Shown here: piece by piece, positions 3,316 through 33,028 of the stretch | Numbering within the stretch: the stretch's first letter is position 1 | Layout: every line of letters begins with the position of its first letter | From: Candidatus Micrarchaeota archaeon | Lineage (GTDB): Archaea > Micrarchaeota > Micrarchaeia > Micrarchaeales > CABMGC01 | Direction: 5' to 3' | Assembly: GCA_021801765.1 (NCBI GenBank) | Contig: JAJYXO010000029.1 | Span: forward strand, 1-45,435 | Length of the DNA stretch: 45,435 bases | Translations under genes and position numbers: made by a program | The notes under the pieces: model-generated | Databases searched by the model: none | Told to the model about the DNA's origin: nothing | Seen by the model: only the letters and a program-made list of their open reading frames with translations

Positions 3316-3652
3316 AAAGCTTTCTCCAATGTAAAGCATATTCTCAGTACTCTGTCTACTGCGAATAGAAGCGATTGCAGGCTAATAAAGTCCCGAAGCT
3401 TCCTGCCAGGAAGCATCTATAAGTATTCTCATTCATCTAACCTCTATAATGCTACAGCGCGGATACTGTCCATCACGCCCTGCTGCGGCTATCTGTCAAA
3501 GAATTGTGAATGCATTACCTAAAGGTAAAAGAGAATTTCAAATACCTTTAAATACCTTTCGAATTATATTATGATTCAATCGTGATTCTTTCGTGTAATG
3601 TGCACGTAAGATTCATGGAGTGTTCATGTAAGGATCGTGATGGGGATTGTCC

Positions 3653-4135
3653 ATGGAGGATGTTGAACAGATAGCAAAGGAGATCAAGGCTCTCAAAGAG
3701 GAGATAGGGGAGCTTGTGGGATCCAAGCGCCAGCTACCTGAAGATACGAACATGGCGATGCTCTTCAAGTATATGACCGATGAAAGAGAGAGGACCAACA
3801 AGATACTCAGCAGCATAACTGATAAGATAATCAGGCTTGAGAAGGAGATAGATAGCACATACAATGCCGGAGAGGCATACGATACGGGAAACAGGGAGAT
3901 AGCTCTATCTGCCTTAGATTCAAAGATTATAAATTTCGTCCAGACAAAAGGCATGGCATGCGCAGACGAAGTAAGGGAGCACATGGGTTACAGGGGCAGA
4001 AACGCAGCATGCGCAAGGCTTAACAGGCTCTACAAGGAGGGCTTGCTTGACAGGTTCCAACTGGGTCACAAGGTTTATTACAGGTTTGATGCTGGCAAGA
4101 CGACCAATACGCTCATTATATCACCTCCACAGTGA
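3653..4135 (+). CDS. Coiled-coil plus C-terminal winged-helix (MarR/TrmB-like) DNA-binding protein
   Basis: ORF track 3647..4135 starts at a TTG; ATG at 3653 is preferred. The N-terminal half is heptad-like (IAKEIKALKEEIGELV). The C-terminal part (ALDSKIINFVQTKGMACADEVREHMGYRGRNAACARLNRLYKEGLLDR) looks like a wHTH. Confidence 0.6.
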   Translation: MEDVEQIAKEIKALKEEIGELVGSKRQLPEDTNMAMLFKYMTDERERTNKILSSITDKIIRLEKEIDSTYNAGEAYDTGNREIALSALDSKIINFVQTKGMACADEVREHMGYRGRNAACARLNRLYKEGLLDRFQLGHKVYYRFDAGKTTNTLIISPPQ

Positions 4136-4137
4136 AC

Positions 4138-4167
4138 AGGCCTGCCGCAAGGCAGGCCTCCCTTCTT
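4138..4167 (+). terminator. Perfect 9-bp GC-rich hairpin 3 nt after the stop codon
   Basis: AGGCCTGCC-gcaa-GGCAGGCCT (4138-4159) followed by cccttctt. Confidence 0.45.
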
Positions 4168-4270
4168 GAGAGAGGCGCTTATCCTTGAAGCTGCGAACCA
4201 GATCGCAGCTATAATGAGTGCAAAAGAGATCTTCACACTAAACAATATAAAAGTTCATAACGTGTATTGA

Positions 4271-5296
4271 GTGGAAGGTTTGATGTCCGCAAGTTCAACG
4301 CATGCAGATGCAGCGTCATTAACGCATTCAAGCGACATAGACGGATTGGCAAGCGCAGCTTTCGTGAAGATGAGATTCGGCATAGATGCAAAGAGAATCT
4401 TCTTCTGCGATTATACGCCCGAGAGCCTGCTCTACGCTTCAGAGAGGATAAAGCCTCTCTGCAGGCCAGGTTTTACGCTCTTCATAACCGATATAGGCAT
4501 GAACACAGGCCTTAAGAAGGCATTTGTTAACCTTCTCTCCTATATCAACAAGAAAGGCGGAAAAGCGGTATGGTTTGACCACCATCCTTGGAGCGAAGGA
4601 GATATCTCGAAAGTTGCCAAGCTTTGCCAGATAGCTATAATAGGGGAGAACAGGAGATATTGCGCCACAGAGATAACAAGGAAGATGCTTGGGCTCAATG
4701 ACGGGTTCTCCATAAAACTTGCCGAGATAGTCCATTATTCAGACTTCAACCTAAAGCCAGACAGCAGGAACATGAAAAGGCTGATAGGCGCATATGCGCT
4801 CTCAATCTCTAGCTACAGCACTATGAATAGGAGAGATGCCTATGCCAAGCTCAGAAATATAGCAGTGCTACTTAGCTGCCATAAGCTTATCTCCAGCAGC
4901 ATCAAAGCAGATGCAGCTGCTTTCAGCAAGCTCAATAGGCTAAGGGTAAGCAAGATGCTTGGAGAGCTTTATGTATACGGAAATGTTGCCATAGGCTTCG
5001 GAGAGACTATACAGTCAACTAACGCCTGCGCAGAGATAATGAAGAAAAGCGGCAAGGACATTGGAATATACATCAATACAGAAAGCAATAAAGGCCATAT
5101 GCGCAGCGTTAAAGCTGATTGTTCAGGAATGGCAAAACGGCTCGGAGGCGGAGGCCACCCGCATGCCTGTGGCTTTCCGCTTAGAGCACCTGAAATAAGC
5201 CAGATAAAAACCAGAAGCGGCAGATCTAATTTCTCGCAGAAGCTGGCATATCTTGCGAGAGACCTCCCAAGCGCAGATCTACCCTCCTCAAAATAA
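4271..5296 (+). CDS. DHH/DHHA1-family phosphoesterase (NrnA / RecJ-like fold)
   Basis: Motifs HSSDIDGLAS, ITDIG, WFDHHPW and the DHHA1 motif GGGGHPHACGF. Start is GTG 4271 or ATG 4283. Confidence 0.75.
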   Translation: MEGLMSASSTHADAASLTHSSDIDGLASAAFVKMRFGIDAKRIFFCDYTPESLLYASERIKPLCRPGFTLFITDIGMNTGLKKAFVNLLSYINKKGGKAVWFDHHPWSEGDISKVAKLCQIAIIGENRRYCATEITRKMLGLNDGFSIKLAEIVHYSDFNLKPDSRNMKRLIGAYALSISSYSTMNRRDAYAKLRNIAVLLSCHKLISSSIKADAAAFSKLNRLRVSKMLGELYVYGNVAIGFGETIQSTNACAEIMKKSGKDIGIYINTESNKGHMRSVKADCSGMAKRLGGGGHPHACGFPLRAPEISQIKTRSGRSNFSQKLAYLARDLPSADLPSSK

Positions 5297-7377: not shown

Positions 7378-9527
7378 CTATACATGCTCTCTGGTTCTTC
7401 TTTGAACCTCCTTATCCTATCTGCCAGCTCCTTTGGTATCGCTGGCTTGATTTCCCTAAGCGCCTTTTTGAAATCATCTGCGTTCACAGTATCTCTCTTC
7501 ACTCTTATCGCATTCATACCCGCTTCTCTGCATAGGTTCTCTATCTCCGCGCCGGTATAGCTCTCTGTCAGGTTTGCGAGCTCGTAAAGATCCACGCTCT
7601 TCTCCAATGGCATCCTCTTTGTATGCACCTTGAAAATCTCTATCCTCGCCTCTATGTCGGGCATCGGTATGTCTATTATCTTGTCGAATCTCCCGGGCCT
7701 GAGCAGAGCAGGATCAATATCTTCAGGTCTGTTAGTTGCAGCAAGCACTATCACGCTCTTCAGCTCCTGCAAGCCGTCCAACTCTGTGAGAAGCGTATCC
7801 ACTACCCTCTCAGTTACTCTAGAATCATCATAAGTTCCACGGGCCTTTGCTATAGCATCTATCTCATCTATGAATATTATGCACGGTGATGCTAGCCTGG
7901 CCTTTCTGAATATCTCCCTAACTGTCTTCTCGCTCTCGCCTACCCATTTGCTCAATACTTCAGGACCTTTTATCGATATGAAGTTCGCCTCCCTCTCTGT
8001 TGCAACTGCCTTTGCAAGCAGCGTCTTCCCTGTCCCAGGGGGGCCGACCAGCAAAACTCCCTTAACCGGCCTTATGCCTATCTTCTCAAATGCCTCGGGC
8101 TCTTTGAGCGGCATCTCCACAGCTTCCTTGAGCTCTGCCTTTACCTTCTCAACTCCCCCTACATCTGACCAGTGAACATTTGGCCTTTCAACAAAAACCT
8201 CTCTCAGGGCGCTGGGCTGTATATTCTTCAGTGCCTCCATAAAGTTCTCCCTGTTTACTGTTAGCTCGCTAAGCACATCTACAGGTATTGACTGTTTGTC
8301 TATTATCTTCGGGAGAAGTTTACGAAGCGTGGACATCGCTGCTTCTTTCACAAGCGCATTCAGATCAGCGCCAGTATAGCCGTGCGTTATGTTCGCAAGT
8401 TCTTCTATACTCACATCCTTGCTTATAGGCATATTGTTTACGTGTATCTGCAGTATCTGCTTCCTCGCATCCCTGTTTGGCACCCCTATCTCTATCTCTC
8501 TATCGAACCTTCCAGGCCGCCTCAATGCTGGATCTATGGCATCCTGCCTGTTTGTAGCTGCTAGTATTATGACCTGCCCTCTAGGCGGCATGCCATCCAT
8601 CAATGTTAGCAGCTGCGAGACCATCCTCCTCTCCACCTCATTAGTTGCCTCCTCCCTCTTAGGGGCTATGGCATCTATCTCATCCATGAAGATTATAGTA
8701 GGAGATTTCTCATTCGCATTCCTGAATATCTCCCTTAACTTCTCCTCGCTTTCCCCTACAAACTTGCTGACAAGCTCGGGTCCTGATATGGATATGAAGT
8801 TTGCATCGCTCTCATTGGCAACTGCCTTTGCAAGCAGCGTCTTTCCTGTCCCAGGGGGGCCGTATAGCAGCACTCCCTTCGGTGGCTCTATTCCAAGCCT
8901 TTGGAAGAGCTCTGGATACCTTATCGGCAGCTCTACCATCTCCCTTATCTTCTGTTTTGCATCATCCAATCCTCCTATGTCTTCGTAGTGTACGTCTCCT
9001 ATTCTTACAAGAGACTCAGATACGGGCTCATCCTTAACCACAAGGTTGGTGTCTATCCCTACCCTGACTATCCCGTGTGGCACCACCTGCACCACAAGGA
9101 AGTTGAATACCAGCCCAAACATAGGTATTGGTATTGAGTCTCCCTTCGTAAGCGGCCTGTTCTCCAGTCTCCTCTTTGCATACTCTGAGAAGTCTGGCGA
9201 GAGTGGAGGCCTCTGGCTCGGAGGCGGTGCAAGTACAACCTTTTCCGCATCCTTGACCTCTGCCTTAGATATGAATATCTTATCTCCTATTCCAACTCCC
9301 AGGTTCTGCCTCAGATAACCGTCTATGCGTATGAATCCAAGGCCTTCATCGCTAGGATGCGATTGCCAGACAACTGCCGCCGAGGATTTTATCTTACCCT
9401 TTATCTCTATAATATCTCCTGACACTACTCCTAACGATTTCCTAGATTTGGAATCTATCCTGGCTATGCTCCTGCCAGAGTCTGTCACTAGCGCATCCGC
9501 AACGGTAAGTTCCAAAGAGGTTGTCAT
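7374..9527 (-). CDS. cdc48: Cdc48/VCP-like AAA+ ATPase (two AAA domains)
   Basis: N-domain ([25 protein letters not shown]), two Walker A motifs [13 protein letters not shown], two Walker B motifs (IIFMDEID / IIFIDEID), and second region of homology. The 4-nt overlap with rps6e suggests an operon. Confidence 0.95.
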
Positions 9528-9659
9528 GAGATCAGCTTCTCACACATGCAGGCATAGTTGCACTGCATGCCCATTTATAAAGAGTGCATAACAGGAATAT
9601 ATAACTTTCTATGCTTATACTCTTCTGTATTCTGAAATTTCGCGGCAAGGAGTGTTCAT

Positions 9660-9812
9660 ATGGGAAAATTCAATCTGGCAGATGAAGAACTGACAAGGAT
9701 CTGGATATGCAGAAAGTGCAAGGCTAGAAACAGGGCAGGATCTGCAAAATGCAGGAAGTGCGGCAGCAAGTACATGAGGACCAAGAGGAAGGAGAAGAGG
9801 GTCAAGAAGTAA
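9660..9812 (+). CDS. rpl40e: 50S ribosomal protein L40e (50 aa, below the ORF-track cutoff)
   Basis: Hand translation: MGKFNLADEELTRIWICRKCKARNRAGSAKCRKCGSKYMRTKRKEKRVKK. It has a CxxC...CxxC zinc ribbon, a basic tail, and GGAG 7 nt upstream of the ATG. Confidence 0.85.
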   Translation: MGKFNLADEELTRIWICRKCKARNRAGSAKCRKCGSKYMRTKRKEKRVKK

Positions 9813-9854
9813 TCTTTATAGGCATTGCAGAATAGTATTATGTTATAATGAAGT

Positions 9855-10088
9855 TTGAGTGATCAGATGGCAGAGCTTAATCCAATAGAAGCCGCAGTGG
9901 TGCAGGCAATGAAGGACATCGGCGCCACGAATGAGGAGAAGAAGAAAACTGCAGATGACATAGCTAAGAAATGCAACAGGCCAAAGAGCATGGTGAACAA
10001 CGCACTTGTCTCACTGATAAATAAAGGCGTGATAAAGAGAGTTGCAAGGGAGAAGGCATCTGGGTACTACGTGATACCTGCAGCCTGA
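9855..10088 (+). CDS. Small winged-helix DNA-binding protein
   Basis: 77 aa; TADDIAKKCNRPKSMVNNALVSLINKGVIKRV is HTH-plus-wing-like. Alternative ATG at 9867. Lies 12 nt upstream of the next ORF. Confidence 0.5.
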   Translation: MSDQMAELNPIEAAVVQAMKDIGATNEEKKKTADDIAKKCNRPKSMVNNALVSLINKGVIKRVAREKASGYYVIPAA

Positions 10089-10099
10089 AGGTCAGTTTT

Positions 10100-10987
10100 A
10101 TGGCAGAGAATACGGATTCCATCGAATTCTTTGCCGACTGCCCAGGCTGGTTCTTGAAATCCACCAAAGCAATAGATACAGGCACAAAGCCCCTTGAGGT
10201 AGCTAAGTATCTCGCATTTGTGAGACGAAACGTAGATATAAAGGCATTTACCTTCTTAAACCTTGATCTAGCAGCGCTTTCGAAAGCAGCTTCAAAGATG
10301 ACCGAAGAGCTGAAAGGCATCTCTTCTCTTCCAGTCGCTTACAAGAGAATGGCAGCGAAAGATGGCAAGGAAGCCGTGGAAAGCGCTGTGATGGGCGAAG
10401 AGCATAAGAAGCCGTTTGCAAATGCCTATCTTTTCAGGATGATACTCGAAAACCTTAAGCTGGATTACACCCTGCATCCTGACAGAAACAGGATATTCGC
10501 AGGCTGCGCTGATGGTATTAAGAACGAATCTAAAGGTAGCAAGGATCCTTCCAACGCAATATCTTTCATAGCAAAGTATGGCAAATGGGTTTCAATAAAA
10601 AAGATGAATATCAGAGAAGATACAAAGCCTGAGGAGATAGCAGCGCATCTTACCTCCATAAGGCTAACTCTTGACAAGAAAGCGTTCGAATACACCGGGC
10701 TAAATGCTGCAGGGCCAGATGATTACGTCGCATCGTTAGGTAAGATGCGAAGGAGTGCTGAAAATCTGGAGAAGGCCATCAATATACTCAATTCAAAGGC
10801 AACGGATGTGAAAGTAGCAGAATTTTCAAAAGGCACAAATGACGGGGGAGAGGTTGCAAGAATCTACCTCCTTAGGCAGATGCTACAAGCAATGAAACTT
10901 AATTTCGATGTGAGTCCAGAAGAGCTCACATCTGCCTACCCTAACTTGAAGATACCAATGCCTCCTGGCCGAAAGCCAAAGAAATAG
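10100..10987 (+). CDS. Hypothetical protein with internal duplication and basic GRKPKK tail
   Basis: 295-aa ORF with no antisense competitor of comparable length. Two halves share TKP.E.A..L...R...D.KAF ... YL.R..L...KL. Confidence 0.55.
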   Translation: MAENTDSIEFFADCPGWFLKSTKAIDTGTKPLEVAKYLAFVRRNVDIKAFTFLNLDLAALSKAASKMTEELKGISSLPVAYKRMAAKDGKEAVESAVMGEEHKKPFANAYLFRMILENLKLDYTLHPDRNRIFAGCADGIKNESKGSKDPSNAISFIAKYGKWVSIKKMNIREDTKPEEIAAHLTSIRLTLDKKAFEYTGLNAAGPDDYVASLGKMRRSAENLEKAINILNSKATDVKVAEFSKGTNDGGEVARIYLLRQMLQAMKLNFDVSPEELTSAYPNLKIPMPPGRKPKK

Positions 10988-11083
10988 TAGGTTACATCTT
11001 AAACTGCCTTTAAGCGAGAGTGGCGATTTGGGCTGCATAACAGAATGCCTGCACTGTTGGCATTATAATACTGCAGCTATCCA

Positions 11084-11218
11084 CTAAATCTTAAAACTGT
11101 GGTTGCATTTGGTGCAGAACTCCTCTCTTTCGCTGCTGCTCTTCGTAGATATTTTTGCATGCCATTCGCTTTTACAGTAACAACTGCATCCTATCATCGC
11201 CTGACAATTCCTGCACAT
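11084..11218 (-). CDS. Candidate 44-aa Cys-rich zinc-ribbon protein
   Basis: Hand translation: MCRNCQAMIGCSCYCKSEWHAKISTKSSSEREEFCTKCNHSFKI. Two CxxC pairs are about 30 aa apart. GGTGA lies 5 nt upstream of the ATG and an A/T-rich box lies about 30 nt upstream. No homology recognised. Confidence 0.3.
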   Translation of the reverse strand: MCRNCQAMIGCSCYCKSEWHAKISTKSSSEREEFCTKCNHSFKI

Positions 11219-11284
11219 AACATTCACCGATGCTTATCCTGACTTCTATCTTTTATTCTTTTTGTCACTCTGAAATTTCTAATG

Positions 11285-11388
11285 TGCAGGGGGAGAGATT
11301 TGAACTCTCGAAGGCGCTAAGCCACAGGATCTTAAGTCCTGCGCAATTTTCTGTGGCCAAATGCCAGACCAGGCTCTGCCACCCCTGC
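11285..11388 (-). tRNA. tRNA-Leu(UAA) with an insertion of about 18-20 nt (putative non-canonical intron) in the D-arm
   Basis: Reverse complement: GCAGGGG TG GCA GAGCCTGGTC[TGGCATTTGGCCACAGAAAAT]TGC G CAGGA CTTAAGA TCCTG T GGCTTAGCGCCTTC GAGAG TTCAAAT CTCTC CCCCTGC A. Acceptor, anticodon, long variable arm and T arms all pair. It is 104 nt versus about 85 expected. CCA is not encoded. Confidence 0.8.
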
Positions 11389-11400
11389 ATTGTGAACAGG

Positions 11401-12141
11401 CTAGGCGTACATCGACGGGCCAGAACCTACGTTGTCTGCGTTGGCATAATGCTCGTGGGATTCTTTGACCTTGCTCATCATCTCGCTTATCTTTGCCTCA
11501 ACCTCCTTTGCCTCCTCCTCCAGTTCGCTTAGATCGACTTCTACACCGAGGAGTTTATTAAGTCCTGTTATAGCTATTTCTGCATACTTTGGATCCATTA
11601 TCGAAGGATTGACTTCCACAAGTATATCTATTGCAGGTATGCCGAACTCCTTCGCATTAACCAGCAGCGAAGCGCTAACTCCAGCAACGACGCCTTCTTC
11701 AATAGCTTTTATGCCAATCTTGCCTGCCTTCTTAACAGTGCTTTCGTCAGAGGATGTCATGTATATGGTATCTGATGGCTTCTGCGAAGGCATGCCTCCT
11801 ACTGAAACCATGCGCAATACTCCATACTTCCTAGCAAAGGCGAGTATCTCTGAAGTAAGTTGGTAGACAGCGTTAGCTGCTATGGCGAACTCAGCAATGA
11901 AGAGCACCAGCTTATACTTCTCGTTCTTGTATATGCGCGCCGGATGCATTGGCACCGCATCGTGAACAGCCGCTATAGGAGGGAACAAGTCACTTGATAT
12001 ATATCCTATATATTTCATGTTGAGCTTCTCTATCATATAGCTGCCTGACATGGTTCCTACAAGGCCTATGCCTGGAAATGCCTCTATGAGCGTATATCCC
12101 TTTATCGTTTCTTTCTCATCGAAAAGCCTTATGCCAATCAT
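11401..12141 (-). CDS. PAC2-family proteasome assembly chaperone (PbaA/B-like)
   Basis: LIEAFPGIGLVGTMSGSYMIEKLNM... is typical of PAC2/COG1938. ATG 12141 is preferred over TTG 12162 because the TTTAAAT box at 12171-12178 would be too close to the latter. Confidence 0.75.
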   Translation of the reverse strand: MIGIRLFDEKETIKGYTLIEAFPGIGLVGTMSGSYMIEKLNMKYIGYISSDLFPPIAAVHDAVPMHPARIYKNEKYKLVLFIAEFAIAANAVYQLTSEILAFARKYGVLRMVSVGGMPSQKPSDTIYMTSSDESTVKKAGKIGIKAIEEGVVAGVSASLLVNAKEFGIPAIDILVEVNPSIMDPKYAEIAITGLNKLLGVEVDLSELEEEAKEVEAKISEMMSKVKESHEHYANADNVGSGPSMYA

Positions 12142-12274
12142 GGAATCATATAGTAGAACCAAGAATAAGAATTTAAAGCTATACTTGGCGACGCAGGCAT
12201 CTGTTATATTTTAATGACGTATCTCCGATGATAAATATAAAAAGATATACCTTTCATCTAATACCGGTGAAAGT

Positions 12275-15537: not shown

Positions 15538-16036
15538 GAATATACCTGTATTAATATTCTAAGAAATGTATTTATACCTTGGCGTTATGGGGCTTTTATA
15601 GGAACTTGACATTTACATTCAATTACCTAGACAAGCCCAATTTCCTTAATAACATAGAGGAGACGATGCAAGACCTTAGATTTCCAATTAAGGCAATTGT
15701 CATGACCTGAGAACATGCCAAAACAAACAACGATAAGAAACCAACAAACCCCCGGTGGGAAAAGGATTCTTCTATCATATGCGATTCGCTTTTATCCAAC
15801 CATGAAGGGCATAGGTTTCCCTCCCACATTGTTAAGTTTTACGTTTTGTCAACTCCTATGACCTCCTTTGCCCATCTTTCAATGCAGCGAGCCGTCAATA
15901 TAACCTCAACATTTCTACCACGAGTATATTCAGCCAACCTCGTTTTAAAAAACAAAGAGGTATATTGTAGAAAGGTTTAAATAGTTTATTAAAGTATATT
16001 TATTTTACTTAAATAAATGATTATATAGTTGATTAT

Positions 16037-16408
16037 ATGATATCCCGACATAAAATTGTCTCAATATGTATAAAAACACTGTTCCTAGCATCTACCCTAT
16101 CGCTGGCGGCCAAGCCTGCTTACGGGTTTATTCCGCTACCGAACCTTGACATACTATCTACATTATCTTATGTGCAGGCCCTTTTGATGAAGGTAGGGCC
16201 TCTTCTAAGCGCTGTTTTGTTCGTAACCGCAGGCATATTCTATGCTATAGGCCAATTTTTCCCTTCATACAAGAGGGCAAGCCTACATGGCATGTCCATA
16301 GATATGATAATAGGCGCGATAGTTGTCGCTGCACTATCAGTTGCATCTACTGGCCTCGCCGCAGCTTCAACCAACCTGCTCTCAAACATTACCTCAAACT
16401 CACTGTGA
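16037..16408 (+). CDS. P1: small secreted two-helix membrane protein, VirB2/TrbC/TedC/CedA1-like layout (candidate conjugative-type pilin)
   Basis: Signal-peptide-like N-terminus (MISRHK + IVSICIKTLFLASTLSLAA + KPAYG). Then hydrophobic helix 1 (LLSAVLFVTAGIFYAIGQFF), a basic loop PSYKRASLHG, and hydrophobic helix 2 (IIGAIVVAALSVASTGLAAA). Confidence 0.55.
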   Translation: MISRHKIVSICIKTLFLASTLSLAAKPAYGFIPLPNLDILSTLSYVQALLMKVGPLLSAVLFVTAGIFYAIGQFFPSYKRASLHGMSIDMIIGAIVVAALSVASTGLAAASTNLLSNITSNSL

Positions 16409-16412
16409 GAAG

Positions 16413-17444
16413 ATGCGACTATTTTGGGAATATGGTTTTTCCATAGCCGTAGACCTGATAGCGATAATGATCGCAGTAAGCGGCATATCGCTTGGAATTG
16501 GATATGCGTTTAACGAGAAGAGGCTCAAAGAATTCGGCAGGCAGGAGCTCTTCCAGTCTATATTCAACGGTATCCTTGTCGGGTGCTTGCTTGCCCTTTT
16601 TTCCACGCATGGCATAATTGGGAATCTTATAACTGCACTAACGCAATCAAAAGGCACAAGTTTTTCGTGCAGCGAGGCGTTGTCAGGAAACCCTGCAATA
16701 TGCTTTGCCTATAACTATCTGGTAGGCATTGGGCCTTACACATTTATGGGCCAAAGCAATCAATCTGTACTTAGCGTTTCTACGGAACTAATAACTGGCC
16801 TCCTGGGGCTTAATGCGATCATCGGCATAGTAGCTGGTATAAAGATCAATATATTTGTCATTAGCATTTCGTTGGCTTCAGTATTGAGCCCAATAATAAA
16901 TGAAATACAATATATCATACGAATCCTCGCAGACGTATCAATAAGTGCAATAGTACAGGCATCTCTGCTAATGTTCGTATCTGTAAGCTCAATTACTGCA
17001 ATACTGCCGACAGGCCTGATCCTAAGGTCATTTCTACCAACGCGGAAGATAGGTGGATTCCTGATATCTCTCAGCATAGGGTTCTACGTCGTCTTCCCCC
17101 TCACATACGTATTCAATGCTGCTCTCATAAGCTCCTATTCTGGCAGCATCAGCAACACTTCAATAGGCTCTGTAAGCATCAACGCTTCAAACCTTGAAAA
17201 TACGCTTCTTTCTGCAAACCCTGGCACTAACGAGAGCCTAAGTCGGCACATAGCATCGCTTGCTTCGGGCATCGAGGCGTCTCTCGCAGGTATGATGAAT
17301 GGCATAATGTCGGATGTTGCATATCTGCTGATGTATGCATTTATCCTGCCCGCATTCAGCCTTATCTTAACTGCCGTATCAATTAGAGAAATAGCCTCGT
17401 TGCTAGGGTCAGAGGTATTTTTTGGTAGGTTCAGGTTATTATGA
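16413..17444 (+). CDS. P2: polytopic (about 7 TM) membrane protein, VirB6/TrbL/CedA-like by layout only
   Basis: ATG 16413 lies 4 nt after the P1 stop; the ORF-track start at 16323 overlaps P1. There are multiple 20-25-aa hydrophobic segments and Asn/Ser-rich loops carrying N-x-S/T sequons. Confidence 0.6.
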   Translation: MRLFWEYGFSIAVDLIAIMIAVSGISLGIGYAFNEKRLKEFGRQELFQSIFNGILVGCLLALFSTHGIIGNLITALTQSKGTSFSCSEALSGNPAICFAYNYLVGIGPYTFMGQSNQSVLSVSTELITGLLGLNAIIGIVAGIKINIFVISISLASVLSPIINEIQYIIRILADVSISAIVQASLLMFVSVSSITAILPTGLILRSFLPTRKIGGFLISLSIGFYVVFPLTYVFNAALISSYSGSISNTSIGSVSINASNLENTLLSANPGTNESLSRHIASLASGIEASLAGMMNGIMSDVAYLLMYAFILPAFSLILTAVSIREIASLLGSEVFFGRFRLL

Positions 17445-18175
17445 TGCAAACAGGCTATGGCTATCGCAAAAATAAGATATATTCATACATGATATACTCA
17501 CTCTCTGCAGCCTTATTTACTGCCAGCATATTCTCATACTCTGCCTTGCTTGTGTTTTCATCCGCTATACTGCTCTTACTTGCTTCTATATACTACAACA
17601 GCGGCCACATTGTAAATAACCTGCTGTTGCGCAAATCAAAGGTAATAGAAATATACAACGGATACAAGCTCAGCACCGAAGGATTGTCCCTCTGCAAACG
17701 AAATGGCAATGAATTCGTTAGCATTTCAGCTGCAATATTAACTCCGAATAATATATCCAATATAACTCCAGAAGATTATGAATCCGTAATAGAGAGTGTT
17801 CATGAACCATTTGACCTCTCTATTTCAATAGTCGAAGAGGGCAAAAGCCGAATACTTGAAGATCTTAATACAAAACTCAAGATGAAAGAGATAGAGCTTG
17901 CGAAAATCGACCCTGGAAAATATGACAGGATAAACAGCATAAAACGGGATATCACAGTAATAGAGGGCGATATTGAAGATATATCTTCTGGAGGCAAAGC
18001 ACTTTCTATTTATATTATCCTCAAAACACGCGCAACTTCAGCTAATGAGATCGACGCAATAGTGGAATCTGCTAAAAATATCGAACGTTTAGCAGAATCT
18101 TTCGCTGCTTCATGCAGGCTTGAATACAATATACTTAGCGGAGAGCATCTAATCCGCGCATTGGAAAGCTGGTGA
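17441..18175 (+). CDS. P3: 2-TM protein with a soluble coiled-coil domain (candidate VirB3 plus VirB4 N-domain equivalent)
   Basis: ATGA overlap with P2. N-terminal hydrophobic hairpin (IYSLSAALFTASIFSYSALLVFSSAILLLLASIYY). Soluble part has the pattern ...KSRILEDLNTKLKMKEIEL...GGKALSIYIILKTRA..EIDAIVESAKNIERL. Confidence 0.5.
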   Translation: MMQTGYGYRKNKIYSYMIYSLSAALFTASIFSYSALLVFSSAILLLLASIYYNSGHIVNNLLLRKSKVIEIYNGYKLSTEGLSLCKRNGNEFVSISAAILTPNNISNITPEDYESVIESVHEPFDLSISIVEEGKSRILEDLNTKLKMKEIELAKIDPGKYDRINSIKRDITVIEGDIEDISSGGKALSIYIILKTRATSANEIDAIVESAKNIERLAESFAASCRLEYNILSGEHLIRALESW

Positions 18176-18176
18176 T

Positions 18177-19259
18177 ATGCTTCAATACGATGGGTTTCTA
18201 TCCGGCTCTAGGAGGATATCTAGATTGATCTGCATGCCTACATTTGCAAAGCCTGAAACAGGAAAAAATGAAAGAAGTTCCGCTGATAAGATATATCTTG
18301 GCAAGACCTCTATCCTTTCCATCCCGTTCTTCCTTGACTTCGATTCTACATTCAATCCTCATGTATTGATAGCAGGAACAAGCGGCAGCGGAAAAACCTT
18401 CACAATTAAAAGCATTATGGCAAAATTAGGGCTAATCTGCAACTCCTCTATTATTTCATTAGATTTTACCGGGGAATATGCAAGCGTTGCAAAACTAATC
18501 TCCGCTTCTAGCAAAATAGAGGATTGCATAGATGGCTCAGTGTATATAAACCTGAAGAGTTTGCCTGATATGAAAATTGCAGAGGAGATAAATAGTGTAT
18601 TGGCAGAGCTTACTTCAATAATGAAAAGCAGGCGGCAACCTGCAAATAGGATATTTATAATTATAGACGAGGCCTGGAAATCAATCAGCGATAGCCCTTT
18701 CTTATCAAGCATAATACGCGAAGGCAGAAAATACAATATATGCATGATATTAGCCTCGCAACTTGTAAATGACATAAAGCCGCAAATGATTGCAAACATA
18801 TCCACTACATTGGCATTTAGATTGCAGGATAAGTTGGGGATACAGTGCCTCATCAAAAACTACGGATTAAAAGATGAAGCGTATACAACCTTTGGTTCGC
18901 TTCAGATAGGGAGCTGTATTGCAATACAGGCGCTTAAATCGGGCAGATGCCGCAGCCTGCTTATAGACAAAGTTGCTGGCGCTAGAGTTGATGGGTCCGC
19001 CAAATTGAAAATAGGTGAAAATGTGGTAGAAATAAAACTAGATGATCTCGAACGTATCATACGCATGATTTCAAAAACCGATCCTTCAGTATTTATCCAG
19101 AAAATTGAATCTGACGGGAGCATAACAACTGCTGAGCTTATAAATCAAATGCTCAAGTTAGGGGCAGAAAGACGAAAAATATTATCTGAATTAAGAAAAC
19201 TTAAAATCACTGACAATGAGCTATCTGACGCATTTGCATCTTCCGAGGCGCTTAAATGA
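18177..19259 (+). CDS. P4: HerA/FtsK/VirB4-clade (DUF87-type) P-loop ATPase with C-terminal wHTH-like tail
   Basis: Walker A HVLIAGTSGSGKTF, Walker B RIFIIIDEAWK, and REGRKYNICMILASQ (the RKYG-type motif of HerA-like ATPases). Confidence 0.75.
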   Translation: MLQYDGFLSGSRRISRLICMPTFAKPETGKNERSSADKIYLGKTSILSIPFFLDFDSTFNPHVLIAGTSGSGKTFTIKSIMAKLGLICNSSIISLDFTGEYASVAKLISASSKIEDCIDGSVYINLKSLPDMKIAEEINSVLAELTSIMKSRRQPANRIFIIIDEAWKSISDSPFLSSIIREGRKYNICMILASQLVNDIKPQMIANISTTLAFRLQDKLGIQCLIKNYGLKDEAYTTFGSLQIGSCIAIQALKSGRCRSLLIDKVAGARVDGSAKLKIGENVVEIKLDDLERIIRMISKTDPSVFIQKIESDGSITTAELINQMLKLGAERRKILSELRKLKITDNELSDAFASSEALK

Positions 19260-19924
19260 GGAAAAAAGGCTATTTGATAAGCAGGATAAGCATGAAGGCG
19301 AGGCTGCTAGGAAACCTAAAGAATGTAGAATCGCTAATCAACCAATACCCATACAATGAGAAAATCTCAGGCGGCAGCAGCCTCAAATACTTAATACGCG
19401 AAGATGAAAAAGCCAGCGAGCGCTTTTACATTATCGACTTTGGAAAAAGCTTCATAAATTTCTCTACATTTTCATCTACTTCGCCTCTAAACTGCATAGA
19501 AGAATCCCTTGCGAGGCTGCTAACTATTATCTCAACTCTCGGAGACAATTACGAAGTAGAGGTAAAAAACCTATTTCCATATTTGATATATGCATTAATG
19601 CGGCAGCGTCTCGTGTATTATATGGAAAATTTAAAAGAGCCAAATGATAACTCTGTCGACTTAATGCTTGCCCGTCGCATAAAACGCTTGCTCATTGAAA
19701 ACAATAAACTTAAATCTGAGCTTTCCGAGGCAAATGGAAAGCTAATGCGCATATTGACGAACCTCATAATTGCAAAATATCCTAACAACGCGAGCTTGCT
19801 TGAAATTGCAGAAAACAATGGGCTCAGCAAAAATGATGTAAATGAAGCCCTTTCCAAATTGCGGAAAAATGGTTATTTTGTAAGGCAAACTTTAGGCGGA
19901 AGATTTAGCGTGGTGAAACTATGA
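19256..19924 (+). CDS. P5: coiled-coil protein with C-terminal winged-helix domain
   Basis: 4-nt overlap with P4. C-terminus is ASLLEIAENNGLSKNDVNEALSKLRKNGYFVRQTLGGRFSVVKL. Confidence 0.55.
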   Translation: MRKKGYLISRISMKARLLGNLKNVESLINQYPYNEKISGGSSLKYLIREDEKASERFYIIDFGKSFINFSTFSSTSPLNCIEESLARLLTIISTLGDNYEVEVKNLFPYLIYALMRQRLVYYMENLKEPNDNSVDLMLARRIKRLLIENNKLKSELSEANGKLMRILTNLIIAKYPNNASLLEIAENNGLSKNDVNEALSKLRKNGYFVRQTLGGRFSVVKL

Positions 19925-20400
19925 TTTTCGATTATTTAATGCGACTGTTCCCAATAGCAATCGGCGCATTTGCGGCCTATATGCTGACAAAAATAAATAT
20001 ATCCAGCAGAAAAGTGAGTATACTTCCAGGCACAAGCCCTTCTTCCTGTTCTGCCGAAGAGATTAGATTTGATTCAATTGACCGTAAACTGCTCCTTAGG
20101 AAATATTCTTTGGATGAACTTATAATAAATGGAAAATTCGAAACATTAAAGCCAAACATCGAATTCCTTGCGTTCTATAAGTTAGGGCTCATTGATGCAA
20201 CAAACTACAGCCCCCACCGCCGTTACATTTTCAAAAAAATAAAAAGAATCAAGATTTTCCTTATACGGAAAGAAGAGCTGTCAAACACAATGGCCTTCGG
20301 GTCTCTGTCTGGGATAATTATGGCTTATATGCTCGGGTACAAGTTAGATCTTGTATGCTCCAGTGATGCGGCAAGCCTATCTGAGATGATAAGGTGGTAG
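19921..20400 (+). CDS. P6: small membrane protein with two TM segments (N- and C-terminal)
   Basis: LMRLFPIAIGAFAAYMLTKI and MAFGSLSGIIMAYMLGY. Overlaps P5 by 4 nt and P7 by 7 nt. Confidence 0.5.
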   Translation: MIFDYLMRLFPIAIGAFAAYMLTKINISSRKVSILPGTSPSSCSAEEIRFDSIDRKLLLRKYSLDELIINGKFETLKPNIEFLAFYKLGLIDATNYSPHRRYIFKKIKRIKIFLIRKEELSNTMAFGSLSGIIMAYMLGYKLDLVCSSDAASLSEMIRW

Positions 20401-22571
20401 CAATAAAAGTATTTAGAGTCGATTCGATACCTTCAAATATAAATTATAAGTTACTAATCAACTCTGCGCTTAATGAACAGTTCATGATATATCATGATTT
20501 ATCTGAATCTGAAACATTGATGCTTGCAACCAGCGAACTCGTAGCATCATTGCACAATTCTATCCCTGGTTTGTCCGTATCTGAGAAATACAAATCATTC
20601 AATCTTAGTTCCATGCGCTATTTGTCTATATACACTAAAAATAACCAGCAACCTCTATGGGATATATACAATATCCTAAAAGGCCATAGCTCTGGGCTGT
20701 TTGTATCTTTCTGCCCGTCAAATTACAAGCATGTAAAGAAAACTAAAGACCGCATAGCTGACTTTATGAGCAGGGAGGAGATACGTGTCACAAAAAGTAT
20801 TATCCCATTAGACAAAAGATCATCAGGGTCAATACAATCTGACTTGTACTATGGTTATGACAGCCGGATGGCTAATACTTCATTGTTGGAAATGCTCTCC
20901 GAATCTCTTTTCCTAAATGGCACATCCTACAAAGTTGCGATGATAATCGAAAGCTATTTAGATGAGCACCTATTTACCTATTTGAAATCCAAATTAAAGG
21001 TAATATATCAATGTGAGATTCACCCTATGTGGATTGAAAAATTATGGAAAATCGCAATTGATAAAGATGCAATACCCTTTTCTCAGGAGGCCTCCTCTTC
21101 TCTTCTCTCGTTTTCTGAAAGCACAATCAAGGAACTAGTGATAAATTCCCCTGCCAAAATTTCTAAGGCTGGAATTTTTATAGGGACTAGGATGCTTGGA
21201 GGAGTAAGTGAGACCAATGATAAGATTTGCATACCAATTCCAACCTTAAACTTAGGTGTAATAATAACCGGAGTCCCTGGGACTGGGAAGACCTTCGCAG
21301 CCATGAATATAGTAGAGCAGGTTTTACGTGCAGGCATGCGTAATATTGCAGTTATATCTCCAACTTCGGAATGGGGCAATATTGCATCAGAATGCGGTAT
21401 GAACCTTGTACGCATATCTGATCCAGCCTTGAGCCTGAACCTTTTCGGATGCAGCGACGCAAACGTATCCAGGTTCTATGAAAACCTTGCCATGCTAATT
21501 GCAAACTCCTGCAACGCAGGCCCTTATACAAACCCACTGGAAAAGTGCCTCTTGTCTGCCTTCCATAAATGTTACTCCGAAGCACTGGATCCCGATCCAA
21601 CTGAACTTTACGAGCAGATAGAGGAGGCAATTATAGAGCAACATGGGAAACGCAGCAATGCAGGTGTAAAATATACTAAGCATGGAGAGAACATACGCTC
21701 TGCGCTTGAAAGCATAAGGCTATTAATAATGAAGCGTCAATTCGCATACAATGGTGGAACTAAGATCAAAGATCTGCTTAAAAACGGAGTAATATTCGAT
21801 CTTTCTGGAGCCAGCAACAGCACCAAACCGCTTTTTTATTCGCTGATACTAAACCAAATATACTCTTACGCTGAACAGTTTGACGAGCTTGGGGACGGGG
21901 CTCTAAGAATGCTGATATGTGCGGAGGAAGCGCATCTTGTTTTTGGCAAAGCTAAAAAATCCGCGCCTTCTGTGGACCTTGGCCAGAGGATGCAAGATTT
22001 CAGGAAAAGAGGGATATGCATGATGCTAGTAACCCATAATGTGACTGACATAGATGATACACTCAGGAGATTATGTCAGATTAAAATGTATTTTAGGCAA
22101 AACTCCGATATTGCTAAGTACGCTGCAAACGATCTAATATTTTCAGAAAAGGACTTTACGGAAGTTGCTGATAAGCTCAAAACCCTAGGGCAGAGGATAT
22201 GCGCATTAAATCATATAAACCAAATTGGAACATCTAAAAACCCGACATCATCAATTTTTATGAAAGCTTCAGAACAGAATCATACACAGGCGCCAATGCC
22301 TTCTCTAGCAAACAACGAATCAAGAAATAAGACAACTATTGTTTCATTGTTTAAGGCAGACGGATCACCTGCAGCCTGCTTCAAAGCGGAGGTACGTTAT
22401 GTTCATGAAGTATTATTTTCAGGGTACACGGATGAAGCTGGTCATATAAAGTCAAATGCCATATTGGATGGGAAAAAATGCGAACTAATTATTTATGGTG
22501 AGAAAAGAAAGGATAATCGGCTATTTTACATAATCGGAGGGGAAGAATCCATAATAAAACTTAACTGCTGA
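20394..22571 (+). CDS. P7: large HerA/VirB4/VirD4-clade P-loop ATPase with C-terminal beta-sandwich-like domain
   Basis: Walker A LGVIITGVPGTGKTF, Walker B LRMLICAEEAHL, and FRKRGICMMLVTHN. C-terminal about 90 aa (IVSLFKADGSPAACFKAEV...YTDEAGHIKSNAILDGKKCELIIYGEK) resembles a CarboxypepD_reg/PEGA pattern. GTG start. Confidence 0.75.
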   Translation: MVAIKVFRVDSIPSNINYKLLINSALNEQFMIYHDLSESETLMLATSELVASLHNSIPGLSVSEKYKSFNLSSMRYLSIYTKNNQQPLWDIYNILKGHSSGLFVSFCPSNYKHVKKTKDRIADFMSREEIRVTKSIIPLDKRSSGSIQSDLYYGYDSRMANTSLLEMLSESLFLNGTSYKVAMIIESYLDEHLFTYLKSKLKVIYQCEIHPMWIEKLWKIAIDKDAIPFSQEASSSLLSFSESTIKELVINSPAKISKAGIFIGTRMLGGVSETNDKICIPIPTLNLGVIITGVPGTGKTFAAMNIVEQVLRAGMRNIAVISPTSEWGNIASECGMNLVRISDPALSLNLFGCSDANVSRFYENLAMLIANSCNAGPYTNPLEKCLLSAFHKCYSEALDPDPTELYEQIEEAIIEQHGKRSNAGVKYTKHGENIRSALESIRLLIMKRQFAYNGGTKIKDLLKNGVIFDLSGASNSTKPLFYSLILNQIYSYAEQFDELGDGALRMLICAEEAHLVFGKAKKSAPSVDLGQRMQDFRKRGICMMLVTHNVTDIDDTLRRLCQIKMYFRQNSDIAKYAANDLIFSEKDFTEVADKLKTLGQRICALNHINQIGTSKNPTSSIFMKASEQNHTQAPMPSLANNESRNKTTIVSLFKADGSPAACFKAEVRYVHEVLFSGYTDEAGHIKSNAILDGKKCELIIYGEKRKDNRLFYIIGGEESIIKLNC

Positions 22572-32921: not shown

Positions 32922-33028
32922 AGCCCCAGATGGGAATTGAACCCACGACCCCTTGTTTTCCAGGTTTTAGTTAAACTTTGGTTCAAAGTCCTTACGAGAC
33001 AAGTGCTCTACCACTGAGCTACTGGGGC
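32922..33028 (-). tRNA. tRNA-Thr(CGU) with an intron of about 35 nt at the canonical 37/38 position
   Basis: Reverse complement: GCCCCAG TA GCTC AGTGGTA GAGC A CTTGT CTCGTA[about 35 nt]A ACAAG GGGTC GTGGG TTCAATT CCCAT CTGGGGC T. Total 107 nt. Confidence 0.8.

Follow-up and report, generated by a model that had tools for sequence, protein, structure and literature searches.

A seven-gene chromosomal operon of Micrarchaeota with a VirB2-like pilin relative and two CedB/CedD-like ATPases as a probable counterpart of the Ced and Ted systems

Chromosomal, domesticated machines of the conjugation type were previously known among archaea from Crenarchaeota only, in the form of the Ced and Ted systems. 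Here we describe an operon of seven genes (P1 to P7) at positions 16037-22571 (+) of contig JAJYXO010000029.1 from the assembly GCA_021801765.1 of a Candidatus Micrarchaeota archaeon, the whole analysed stretch of 45,435 nucleotides being referred to as the window. The operon encodes a pilin relative (P1), a polytopic membrane protein (P2), two ATPases (P4 and P7) and three further proteins (P3, P5 and P6), and is best described as derived from a type IV secretion system (T4SS) and as one of the Ced/Ted kind; both the phylum and the gene architecture are new for this kind. We hold it probable (roughly 0.6) that the products form a chromosomally fixed, vertically inherited and relaxase-less machine of T4SS descent, the Micrarchaeota counterpart of Ced and Ted, which transfers DNA or another macromolecule.

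The Ced system of the Sulfolobales (CedA, CedA1, CedA2, CedB, CedD and CedE) is chromosomal and relaxase-less and combines a VirB2-like pilin and a polytopic membrane protein with two paralogous HerA/VirB4-type ATPases, and the module resembles it in all of these respects. Both CedB and CedD are required for DNA import (PMC11868833) and CedD has been described as VirD4-like (PMC11823120). The Ted system of the Thermoproteales (TedA, TedB and TedC) is, by its description, also chromosomal, with a pilin leader of the signal peptidase I (SPase-I) type, a VirB6-like polytopic protein and a VirB4-like ATPase, and Ted loci often hold a second, HerA-like helicase beside VirB4 (PMC9905601). The two-ATPase pairing of the module mirrors both CedB with CedD and the Ted VirB4 with its helicase. 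An earlier interpretation made from the letters of this DNA (the sequence-only reading) had held that two split ATPases match no nameable system; this has to be given up, since Ced uses such a pair and the Sulfolobus conjugative plasmids also have two. A further resemblance is that genes for pilin-like and polytopic proteins can sit apart from those for the ATPases (locus L090, below). The module nevertheless differs from Ced in that all of its genes are in one operon with three extra members (P3, P5 and P6). CedA1 was reported to be unprocessed (PMC9905601) while the P1 leader looks cleavable and Sec-type. Further differences are that P4 has only 360 aa, a bare ATPase domain, where the CedB model has 590 positions, that P2 has no detectable similarity to anything, and that the host is a DPANN symbiont and not a crenarchaeon. 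Ted differs in its gene order and has ParA/MinD and Rad50 where the module has P3, P5 and P6.

The Sulfolobus conjugative plasmid pNOB8 shares with the module two FtsK/HerA-type ATPases, DUF87 proteins of 630 aa and 1025 aa, which we take to be TrbE-like and TraG-like, respectively. It differs in being a mobile plasmid with an integrase and ParA/ParB, and profiles of P1, P2, P3 and P6 gave no meaningful match to its open reading frames (ORFs). To our knowledge, Ced, Ted and the archaeal plasmids are all devoid of recognisable relaxases. No pilin is known for the Sulfolobus conjugative plasmids (PMC9905601). Among bacterial systems, the Trw system of R388 (VirB2-B3-B4-B5-B6 ... D4) has an order of pilin, small membrane protein and ATPase reminiscent of the module; P1 aligns with TrwL, and P2 (343 aa) and TrwI (342 aa) agree in size and are both polytopic. 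However, P2 is unlike TrwI and P3 is unlike TrwM, the VirB4 N-terminal domain is missing from P4, and P7 has none of the VirD4 transmembrane (TM) segments. General Pfam and NCBIfam scans of the seven products, run with no dedicated set of T4SS-component profiles, gave no significant match to VirB1, VirB5, VirB7-VirB11 or a relaxase. The T4SS of Patescibacteria (the candidate phyla radiation, CPR) is likewise chromosomal, widespread in its phylum and mostly relaxase-less in ultrasmall host-dependent cells, with VirB2-like pilins of PF18895 and PF04956 encoded beside a VirB4-type ATPase (PMC12102498). It is bacterial, though, with a bona fide VirB4 of the MPF-FATA class and homologues of VirB3, VirB6 and TrsD, and its pilin genes often occur in arrays, whereas the module has a single pilin gene and unrecognisable membrane components. 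Nanohaloarchaeal SPEARE proteins carry VirB4/TraG-like domains (PMC10266531) in a different architecture.

All seven genes lie on the same strand. Of the six junctions, two are gaps, of 4 nt (P1/P2) and 1 nt (P3/P4), and the others are overlaps, of 4 nt (P2/P3, P4/P5 and P5/P6) and 7 nt (P6/P7). The coordinates and coupling given by the sequence-only reading were reproduced. Public contigs with identical proteins had been called independently into the same seven products (123, 343, 244, 360, 222, 159 and 725 aa). As every junction is an overlap or a gap of 4 nt or less and the gene callers agree, P1 to P7 were taken as one operon. Upstream of P1, an AT-rich stretch at 15950-16036 (+) with TATA-like elements, among them TTTAAATA at ~15975 (~55 nt 5' of P1), is a candidate archaeal promoter of the operon as read from the sequence. 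Of the seven products, four are exported or reside in the membrane.

P1 (16037-16408, +) is the most conserved protein of the module, with 51-72% identity. Its hydropathy profile displays a leader followed by two hydrophobic helices, and the AlphaFold2 (AF2) model (predicted local distance difference test score, pLDDT, 85) starts with a leader helix, is disordered in the linker where cleavage is predicted and then forms a hairpin of residues 38-72 and 77-122, in keeping with the signal peptide and helix pair noticed earlier. P76 and K79 in the basic loop between the helices are nearly invariant. The leader is Sec-type, with A-Y-G before residue 31 (A-x-A in relatives), and looks SPase-I-type like that of TedC. 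Among 42 members of the P1 family, 33 matched the Pfam family T4SS_pilin (PF18895) and 23 matched TrbC/VirB2 (PF04956), which were the two most frequent Pfam families. Three relatives reached the T4SS_pilin gathering score of 26.6 bits (with 30.4, 29.0 and 26.9 bits), their match covering positions 2-63 of the 71 in the profile, and the TrbC match extended over positions 8-96 of 98 with up to 25.8 bits, below the gathering score of 27.9. A search of PDB sequences with the family profile returned a single hit, TrwL, the VirB2 of R388 (E 0.25), with which P1 aligned in register over 51 columns in hhalign (E 3.6e-4); the CedA1 and TedC chains in the PDB were not matched by the profile at E<=10. 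By these profile matches P1 is, at the family level, a relative of the VirB2/TrbC-type (T4SS) pilins and itself a candidate pilin, which bears out the pilin assignment made from the sequence.

P2 (16413-17444, +; ATG start, the mechanical ORF opening at TTG 16323) contains ~7 hydrophobic segments and a small extracellular region with two invariant Cys and a variable Ser/Asn-rich loop (248-275). Foldseek with its AF2 model (pLDDT 80.6) found nothing in the PDB (best E 0.73) or BFVD, and hhalign against TrwI, the VirB6 of R388, was empty. When P1 was aligned to the N-terminus of P2, following the CedA1/CedA-type relation of Beltran et al., the expected region was aligned insignificantly (E 0.62). 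P2 had been likened to VirB6, TrbL and CedA; the number of segments, the position and the polytopic layout agree with this, while homology does not follow from any sequence, profile or fold search, and P2 is accordingly a candidate positional counterpart of VirB6, CedA and TedA by its position and topology. An exhaustive profile search placed P2 in a large family, with 2089 representatives at E<=1e-3, of which 788 reach E<=1e-10. Three loci with distant P2 relatives were inspected. In one of them (L090, 7751-8993), a leaderless 81-aa P1-like gene (E 2e-15) is immediately followed by a P2-like one (E 4e-45), and no ATPase gene lies within 8 kb; this layout resembles Ced, where cedA1-cedA lie apart from cedB. 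From this locus P1 and P2 seem to function as a pair.

On the other two archaeal contigs (L088, 7849-15309; L091, 5786-18285), six or seven P2-like paralogues stand in tandem, with no ATPase or pilin detected nearby. Two of the arrayed proteins, of 726 and 1457 aa, carry giant inserts at the place of the window loop 248-275. Rickettsiales have multiplied and extended VirB6 genes, which these arrays resemble.

The first ATPase, P4 (18177-19259, +), is a soluble member of the FtsK/HerA superfamily with Walker A GTSGSGKT, Walker B IIIDEAW, the motif REGRKY and a conserved C-terminal domain of ~90 aa; it is an ATPase core devoid of the VirB4 N-terminal domain. The Walker A, Walker B and arginine motifs quoted from the sequence were recovered in both ATPases, and RxGRKY or FRKxG together with Walker A/B is invariant within each ATPase family. 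P4 matched AAA_10, DUF87 and TrwB_AAD_bind in Pfam. In NCBIfam, the window P4 scored 59 bits with CedB (equivalog cut-off 700, not reached), 44 with CedD, 42 with VirB4_plasma, 36 with CD1110, 35 with VirB4_CagE, 35 with antiphage HerA and 22 with repair HerA. CedB was the best model in 29/29 members of the P4 family, with the lowest best E of any model (4e-24), followed by CedD, the CD1110 VirB4-like model and TraC. VirB4_CagE, TraC, CD1110 and VirB4_plasma matched 27-29 of the 29 members with best E of 1e-16 to 3e-19, far below their cut-offs. The P4 profile aligned with the pNOB8 630-aa ATPase over 211 columns (hhalign probability 98.3, E 2e-14) and less well with the 1025-aa ATPase of the same plasmid. 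As all ATPase scores stay far below the curated cut-offs, they express nearest resemblance and not membership, and judged by them P4 is nearest to the CedB and VirB4-like ATPases, inside the HerA/VirB4 part of the superfamily to which it had been assigned.

The same searches bear on the possibility that the operon is a HerA-type complex unrelated to secretion, i.e. a HerA or MADS-like system of defence against phages or a DNA-repair helicase tethered to the membrane. PADLOC models of mad8 (1.5e-18) and HerA (1e-16) match P4, mad8 also matches P7, and antiphage HerA structures are the top PDB matches of P4. Yet CedB beats the HerA models by 24-37 bits for the window P4, and no nuclease, SIR2, NurA, Mre11 or Rad50 is present in or beside the operon. 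The other five proteins matched no cognate effector or partner model of HerA/MADS systems in PADLOC; P5 gave two marginal CARF/Csa3 matches (E 4e-3 to 8e-3). Such a complex would also leave the pilin homology and the four membrane or exported products unexplained, and near-universal presence at a stable position in a reduced genome is atypical of defence islands. We therefore regard this explanation as highly improbable. A HerA-NurA/Mre11-Rad50 repair module in particular was rejected, as its partner genes are absent beside the operon and repair HerA scores 22 bits against 59 for CedB.

The second ATPase, P7 (20394-22571, +; GTG start), is likewise a soluble FtsK/HerA-superfamily protein, with Walker A GVPGTGKT, Walker B LICAEEA, FRKRG, an N-terminal domain of ~270 aa and a C-terminal domain of ~120 aa. 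CedD was the best NCBIfam model in 19 of 22 P7 members (lowest best E 3e-12) and the VirB4-like CD1110 model matched 15 of the 22; the window P7 reached 29.3 of the 600 bits of the CedD equivalog cut-off. Among five references in hhalign, the best for P7 was the pNOB8 1025-aa ATPase (probability 55, E 1e-4, 369 columns). Both resemblances, to CedD and to the pNOB8 protein, are weak, and no TM segment was seen in P7, which is a candidate CedD/VirD4-like ATPase. With CedD nearest and its place in the HerA/VirB4 part of the superfamily, the expectation of a second ATPase of the same clade was upheld. Searches of plasmids with P4 and P7 by tblastn gave superfamily-level matches only (EccC, FtsK and DUF87).

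These plasmid matches, together with the set of a small pilin-like protein, a polytopic membrane protein and ATPases, could also be taken to indicate a type IV pilus, an archaellum-like structure or a type VII (ESX)-like secretion system, as the nearest plasmid-borne BLAST matches of P4 are EccC/FtsK of mycobacterial ESX loci. We consider this extremely unlikely: the P1 leader is Sec-type with an A-x-G/A site and not a class III signal peptide with a hydrophobic N-terminus behind it, neither ATPase significantly matches PilB/GspE/VirB11-type models, the EccC/EssC models fall below those of CedB or VirB4, and EccB, EccD, EccE and WXG-like genes are absent.

Each soluble ATPase gene is preceded at once by that of a small membrane protein, P3 before P4 and P6 before P7. 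By analogy to VirB3, the VirB4 N-terminal domain and the VirD4 TM domain, P3 and P6 were read as ATPase anchors. P3 (17441-18175, +) consists of a single 39-residue hydrophobic stretch (residues 14-52) and a soluble domain with a charged helical segment. It had been called a 2-TM protein with a soluble domain; the stretch is continuous in hydropathy and can be read as a hairpin. P3 is always immediately upstream of P4 and may be its membrane anchor or partner; it matched no family, no PDB entry and not TrwM, the VirB3 of R388. P6 (19921-20400, +), conserved in 51 loci, has a clear hydrophobic segment at residues 6-22 and a weak one at 123-139, so that one segment of the small 2-TM protein proposed earlier is borne out and the second is weakly supported. 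P5 (19256-19924, +), also conserved in 51 loci, is soluble, with a coiled-coil-like helical middle and a C-terminal helix-turn-helix (HTH). The helical middle agrees with the coiled coil of the sequence-only reading, and the winged HTH (wHTH) is weakly supported by Pfam (E ~4e-3) and by a DeoR HTH match of the family profile in the PDB (E 7e-4). The P5 profile also touches a wHTH regulator ORF of pNOB8 (E 4e-4).

The synteny of the module was scored by profile hidden Markov models built from the window proteins and their locus-encoded relatives, over the 59 informative species-level loci in which 5.5 kb or more precede P7. P1-P2-P3-P4-P5 precede P7 in the same order and strand in 37/59 loci, with P6 detected in most, and one further locus has the same arrangement with P4 disrupted. 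Four loci hold only a free-standing P4 C-terminal domain with P5-P6-P7, and 17 hold P7 alone. The arrangement conserved in 37 of 59 loci is not due to chance. When P7 was clustered by sequence, the linked state was found throughout, the most divergent clusters included, and the unlinked state formed one main group of eight loci besides scattered cases. In L086 (10001-14856), P1-P6 adjoin dph2 and rpL10e, and EF1A/S10 sit at the expected place of P7. From this locus and the 17 with P7 alone it follows that the gene for the second ATPase can also lie at a different place in the genome.

The module of the window is the most compact version, its span from P5 to P7 being 470 nt against a median of 1001 nt; elsewhere one or two extra small membrane ORFs, lacking in the window, precede P7. 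L021, L023, L028 and L043 (each at ~8050-12220) encode the C-terminal domain of P4 (~90 aa) as a gene of its own, after which come P5, P6, a small TM ORF and P7. Upstream, these loci lack P1-P3 and the P4 ATPase, with SMC in their place in L021, and the P7 proteins of the four loci belong to one sequence cluster. The loci suggest a sub-module made up of the P4 C-terminal domain with P5, P6 and P7. Extra P4-like ATPase genes were seen near the module in L040 (14210-15931, E 5e-66), and further ones in L010 and L066 (~3348-4901 (-), E ~1e-14).

As T4SS genes usually reside on mobile elements, the operon might instead belong to an integrated conjugative element, a plasmid or a provirus, with its ATPases serving transfer or packaging of that element. 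The GC content of the module (0.404) is under that of its flanks (0.46 in the rest of the window), P3-P7 having 0.387-0.397 and P1 and P2 0.44-0.45, and toxin-antitoxin pairs stand beside the module in some genomes. The P4 profile also matches weakly the packaging ATPase B204 of Sulfolobus turreted icosahedral virus (STIV; E 9e-5, far weaker than for the HerA chains in the PDB) and a PHROG terminase family. Against this, 16 module-bearing loci other than that of the window have rpL10e, often together with dph2, no more than ~5 kb upstream of P1, immediately 5' of P1 in several of them, and this position is kept in many species; at other loci the flanks are different housekeeping genes or toxin-antitoxin pairs that vary by lineage. 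Identity of 35-72% across 174 species genomes gives a pattern that looks vertical. No integrase, relaxase, replication, capsid or portal gene was seen within 10 kb at any inspected locus, in agreement with the sequence-only reading, which had recognised no relaxase, integrase, capsid or replication gene; in the window none is annotated within 10 kb on either side of the module. Capsid neighbours, which would mean a provirus, were looked for and neither capsid nor portal genes adjoin the module. Profile scans of IMG/VR returned no viral relatives of P7 or P2 and P-loop-level matches only for P4, and no tRNA or repeat boundary adjoins the module. An origin as part of a mobile element thus appears very improbable. 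The conserved order in 37/59 loci, the rpL10e/dph2 position, the housekeeping flanks and the absence of IMG/VR relatives point to a domesticated and not a mobile machine. Two related candidates were rejected as well: recent transfer inferred from low GC, as the module is syntenic across many species, and a viral origin from PHROGs, in which only the ATPase cores were matched (besides a marginal HTH-type match of P5) while partner genes are lacking and the chromosomal position is stable.

If the operon is the Micrarchaeota counterpart of Ced and Ted, its working may be pictured as follows. P1 would be exported via Sec and lose its leader to signal peptidase I, leaving the two-helix pilin in the membrane, from which it may be extracted into a VirB2-like filament or short conduit; of this, the pilin homology is shown at family level. 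P2, from its position and topology, would serve as the polytopic platform or pore for pilin assembly. P3 may tether the soluble, presumably hexameric CedB/VirB4-like P4 to the membrane in the manner of VirB3 or the VirB4 N-terminal domain, and P4 may power pilin extraction, substrate transfer or both. P7, as the second, CedD/VirD4-like ATPase, possibly docked via P6, would move the substrate (most likely DNA) into the channel or out of it. P5 may bind DNA as a substrate adaptor or as a regulator of the operon. The net outcome would be contact-dependent transfer of DNA or another macromolecule among Micrarchaeota cells or between symbiont and host.

Several observations weigh against this interpretation. 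The window P1 by itself matches no pilin model or family, so its membership relies on 45-65% identity to relatives that do, and Foldseek of its model against the PDB gives generic helical hairpins (ATP synthase c subunits and toxins) with no discrimination. The P2 family (44 sequences) has no match in Pfam, NCBIfam or PDB sequences, and no test run related P2 to VirB6, TrbL or CedA; the family is also not specific to such machines, as P2-like arrays occur with no ATPase. P3 and P6 match nothing, P6 in Pfam and NCBIfam searches. All ATPase scores are far below the cut-offs (59 against 700 for CedB and 29 against 600 for CedD), HerA and mad8 defence models score similarly for the ATPases (65 bits), and HerA chains in the PDB (7e-23 to 1e-16) outscore the single VirB4 chain 4ag5 (9e-12) for P4. 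P7 is unlinked from P1-P6 in ~17 of the 59 loci and also in L086. The assignment of a substrate is purely inferential, the system being known here from its genes alone.

This last point leads to the one serious rival, namely that the same T4SS-derived machine moves a substrate other than DNA and acts as a host-interaction conduit for uptake or delivery of proteins, nucleotides, lipids or other molecules, a role also suspected for the chromosomal T4SS of the ultrasmall Patescibacteria. The chromosomal and relaxase-less T4SS of Patescibacteria, with VirB2-like pilins of PF18895, is essential for epibiotic growth (PMC12102498), and Micrarchaeota, in which many transporters and biosynthetic pathways are missing, depend on cell contact with Thermoplasmatales hosts (PMC8975820, PMC5498576). 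The operon contains no relaxase or nuclease, and the distant P2-like arrays have giant extracellular inserts. However, Ced and Ted are also relaxase-less and yet move DNA (PMC9905601), the nearest named models are the DNA importers CedB and CedD and the ATPases of conjugative plasmids, P5 carries an HTH, and no effector is identifiable from sequence. On balance a non-DNA substrate is possible but unlikely. More tentatively still, by analogy, the module could be the DPANN counterpart of the patescibacterial T4SS, a core, vertically inherited pilus conduit on which the symbiotic life of Micrarchaeota would depend and which would draw DNA, nucleotides or other macromolecules from Thermoplasmatales hosts, and the 'pili-like' bridges between ARMAN (archaeal Richmond Mine acidophilic nanoorganisms) cells and their hosts might be made of P1; we consider this doubtful. 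If true, two unrelated ultrasmall symbiont lineages would have independently domesticated conjugation machinery for episymbiosis.

Full-text literature on Micrarchaeota or DPANN together with T4SS, Ced, HerA or pili yielded no description of the module, with subscription journals thinly covered and a mention at arCOG level possible elsewhere. The genome paper of Mancarchaeum Mia14 reported Sec, Tat and two loci for type IV pili, and on DNA exchange it offered no more than speculation (PMC5498576), the paper on Ca. Micrarchaeum harzensis A_DKE lists no such system (PMC8975820), and a T4SS review of December 2025 names the Sulfolobus plasmids and pT33-3 as the only archaeal systems (PMC12857230). 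As the Micrarchaeota counterpart of Ced and Ted, the module would widen the known spread of T4SS-derived systems in Archaea and bear on how DPANN archaea get DNA, nucleotides and lipids from their hosts, in parallel to the T4SS on which the epibiotic growth of Patescibacteria depends. It offers a concrete set of genes, for a conserved VirB2-like pilin and two CedB/CedD-like ATPases, whose chromosomal site is fixed in a genome of ~0.6-1 Mb.

The host is a Micrarchaeota (DPANN) archaeon with a small genome, as the sequence-only reading had supposed in speaking of a small-genome archaeon. P7 has ~190 full-length relatives with 36-46% identity, and the named ones are from metagenome-assembled genomes (MAGs) of Candidatus Micrarchaeota, Micrarchaeia or Micrarchaeaceae. 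A profile scan of one genome per GTDB species found P7 relatives in 174 genomes, and among the best 80 of these all those named are Micrarchaeota-type MAGs. In the window, the module is flanked on one side by the housekeeping genes eIF2-gamma, S6e, CDC48, dph2, a Nudix/IDI gene and rpL10e, and on the other by mqo, isocitrate dehydrogenase and aconitase, the stop of P7 being 3 nt short of the convergent mqo gene. The 500-nt spacer between rpL10e and P1 is unusually long for such a compact genome. It contains a 68-aa ORF at 15623-15829 (-), which is probably spurious since other gene callers omit it. At a locus with an identical P1 (L093, 13979-15177, compared with the window from 22571 onward), P7 has 723 aa and not 725, and small ORFs replace mqo, isocitrate dehydrogenase and aconitase on the right flank, which points to rearrangement at the right boundary between close strains. 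Two tRNAs are encoded in the window, both far from the module. At 32922-33028 (-), Rfam gives a tRNA spanning 107 nt (60.7 bits) where ARAGORN reports none; it probably contains an intron, and intron-containing tRNAs are common in DPANN archaea.

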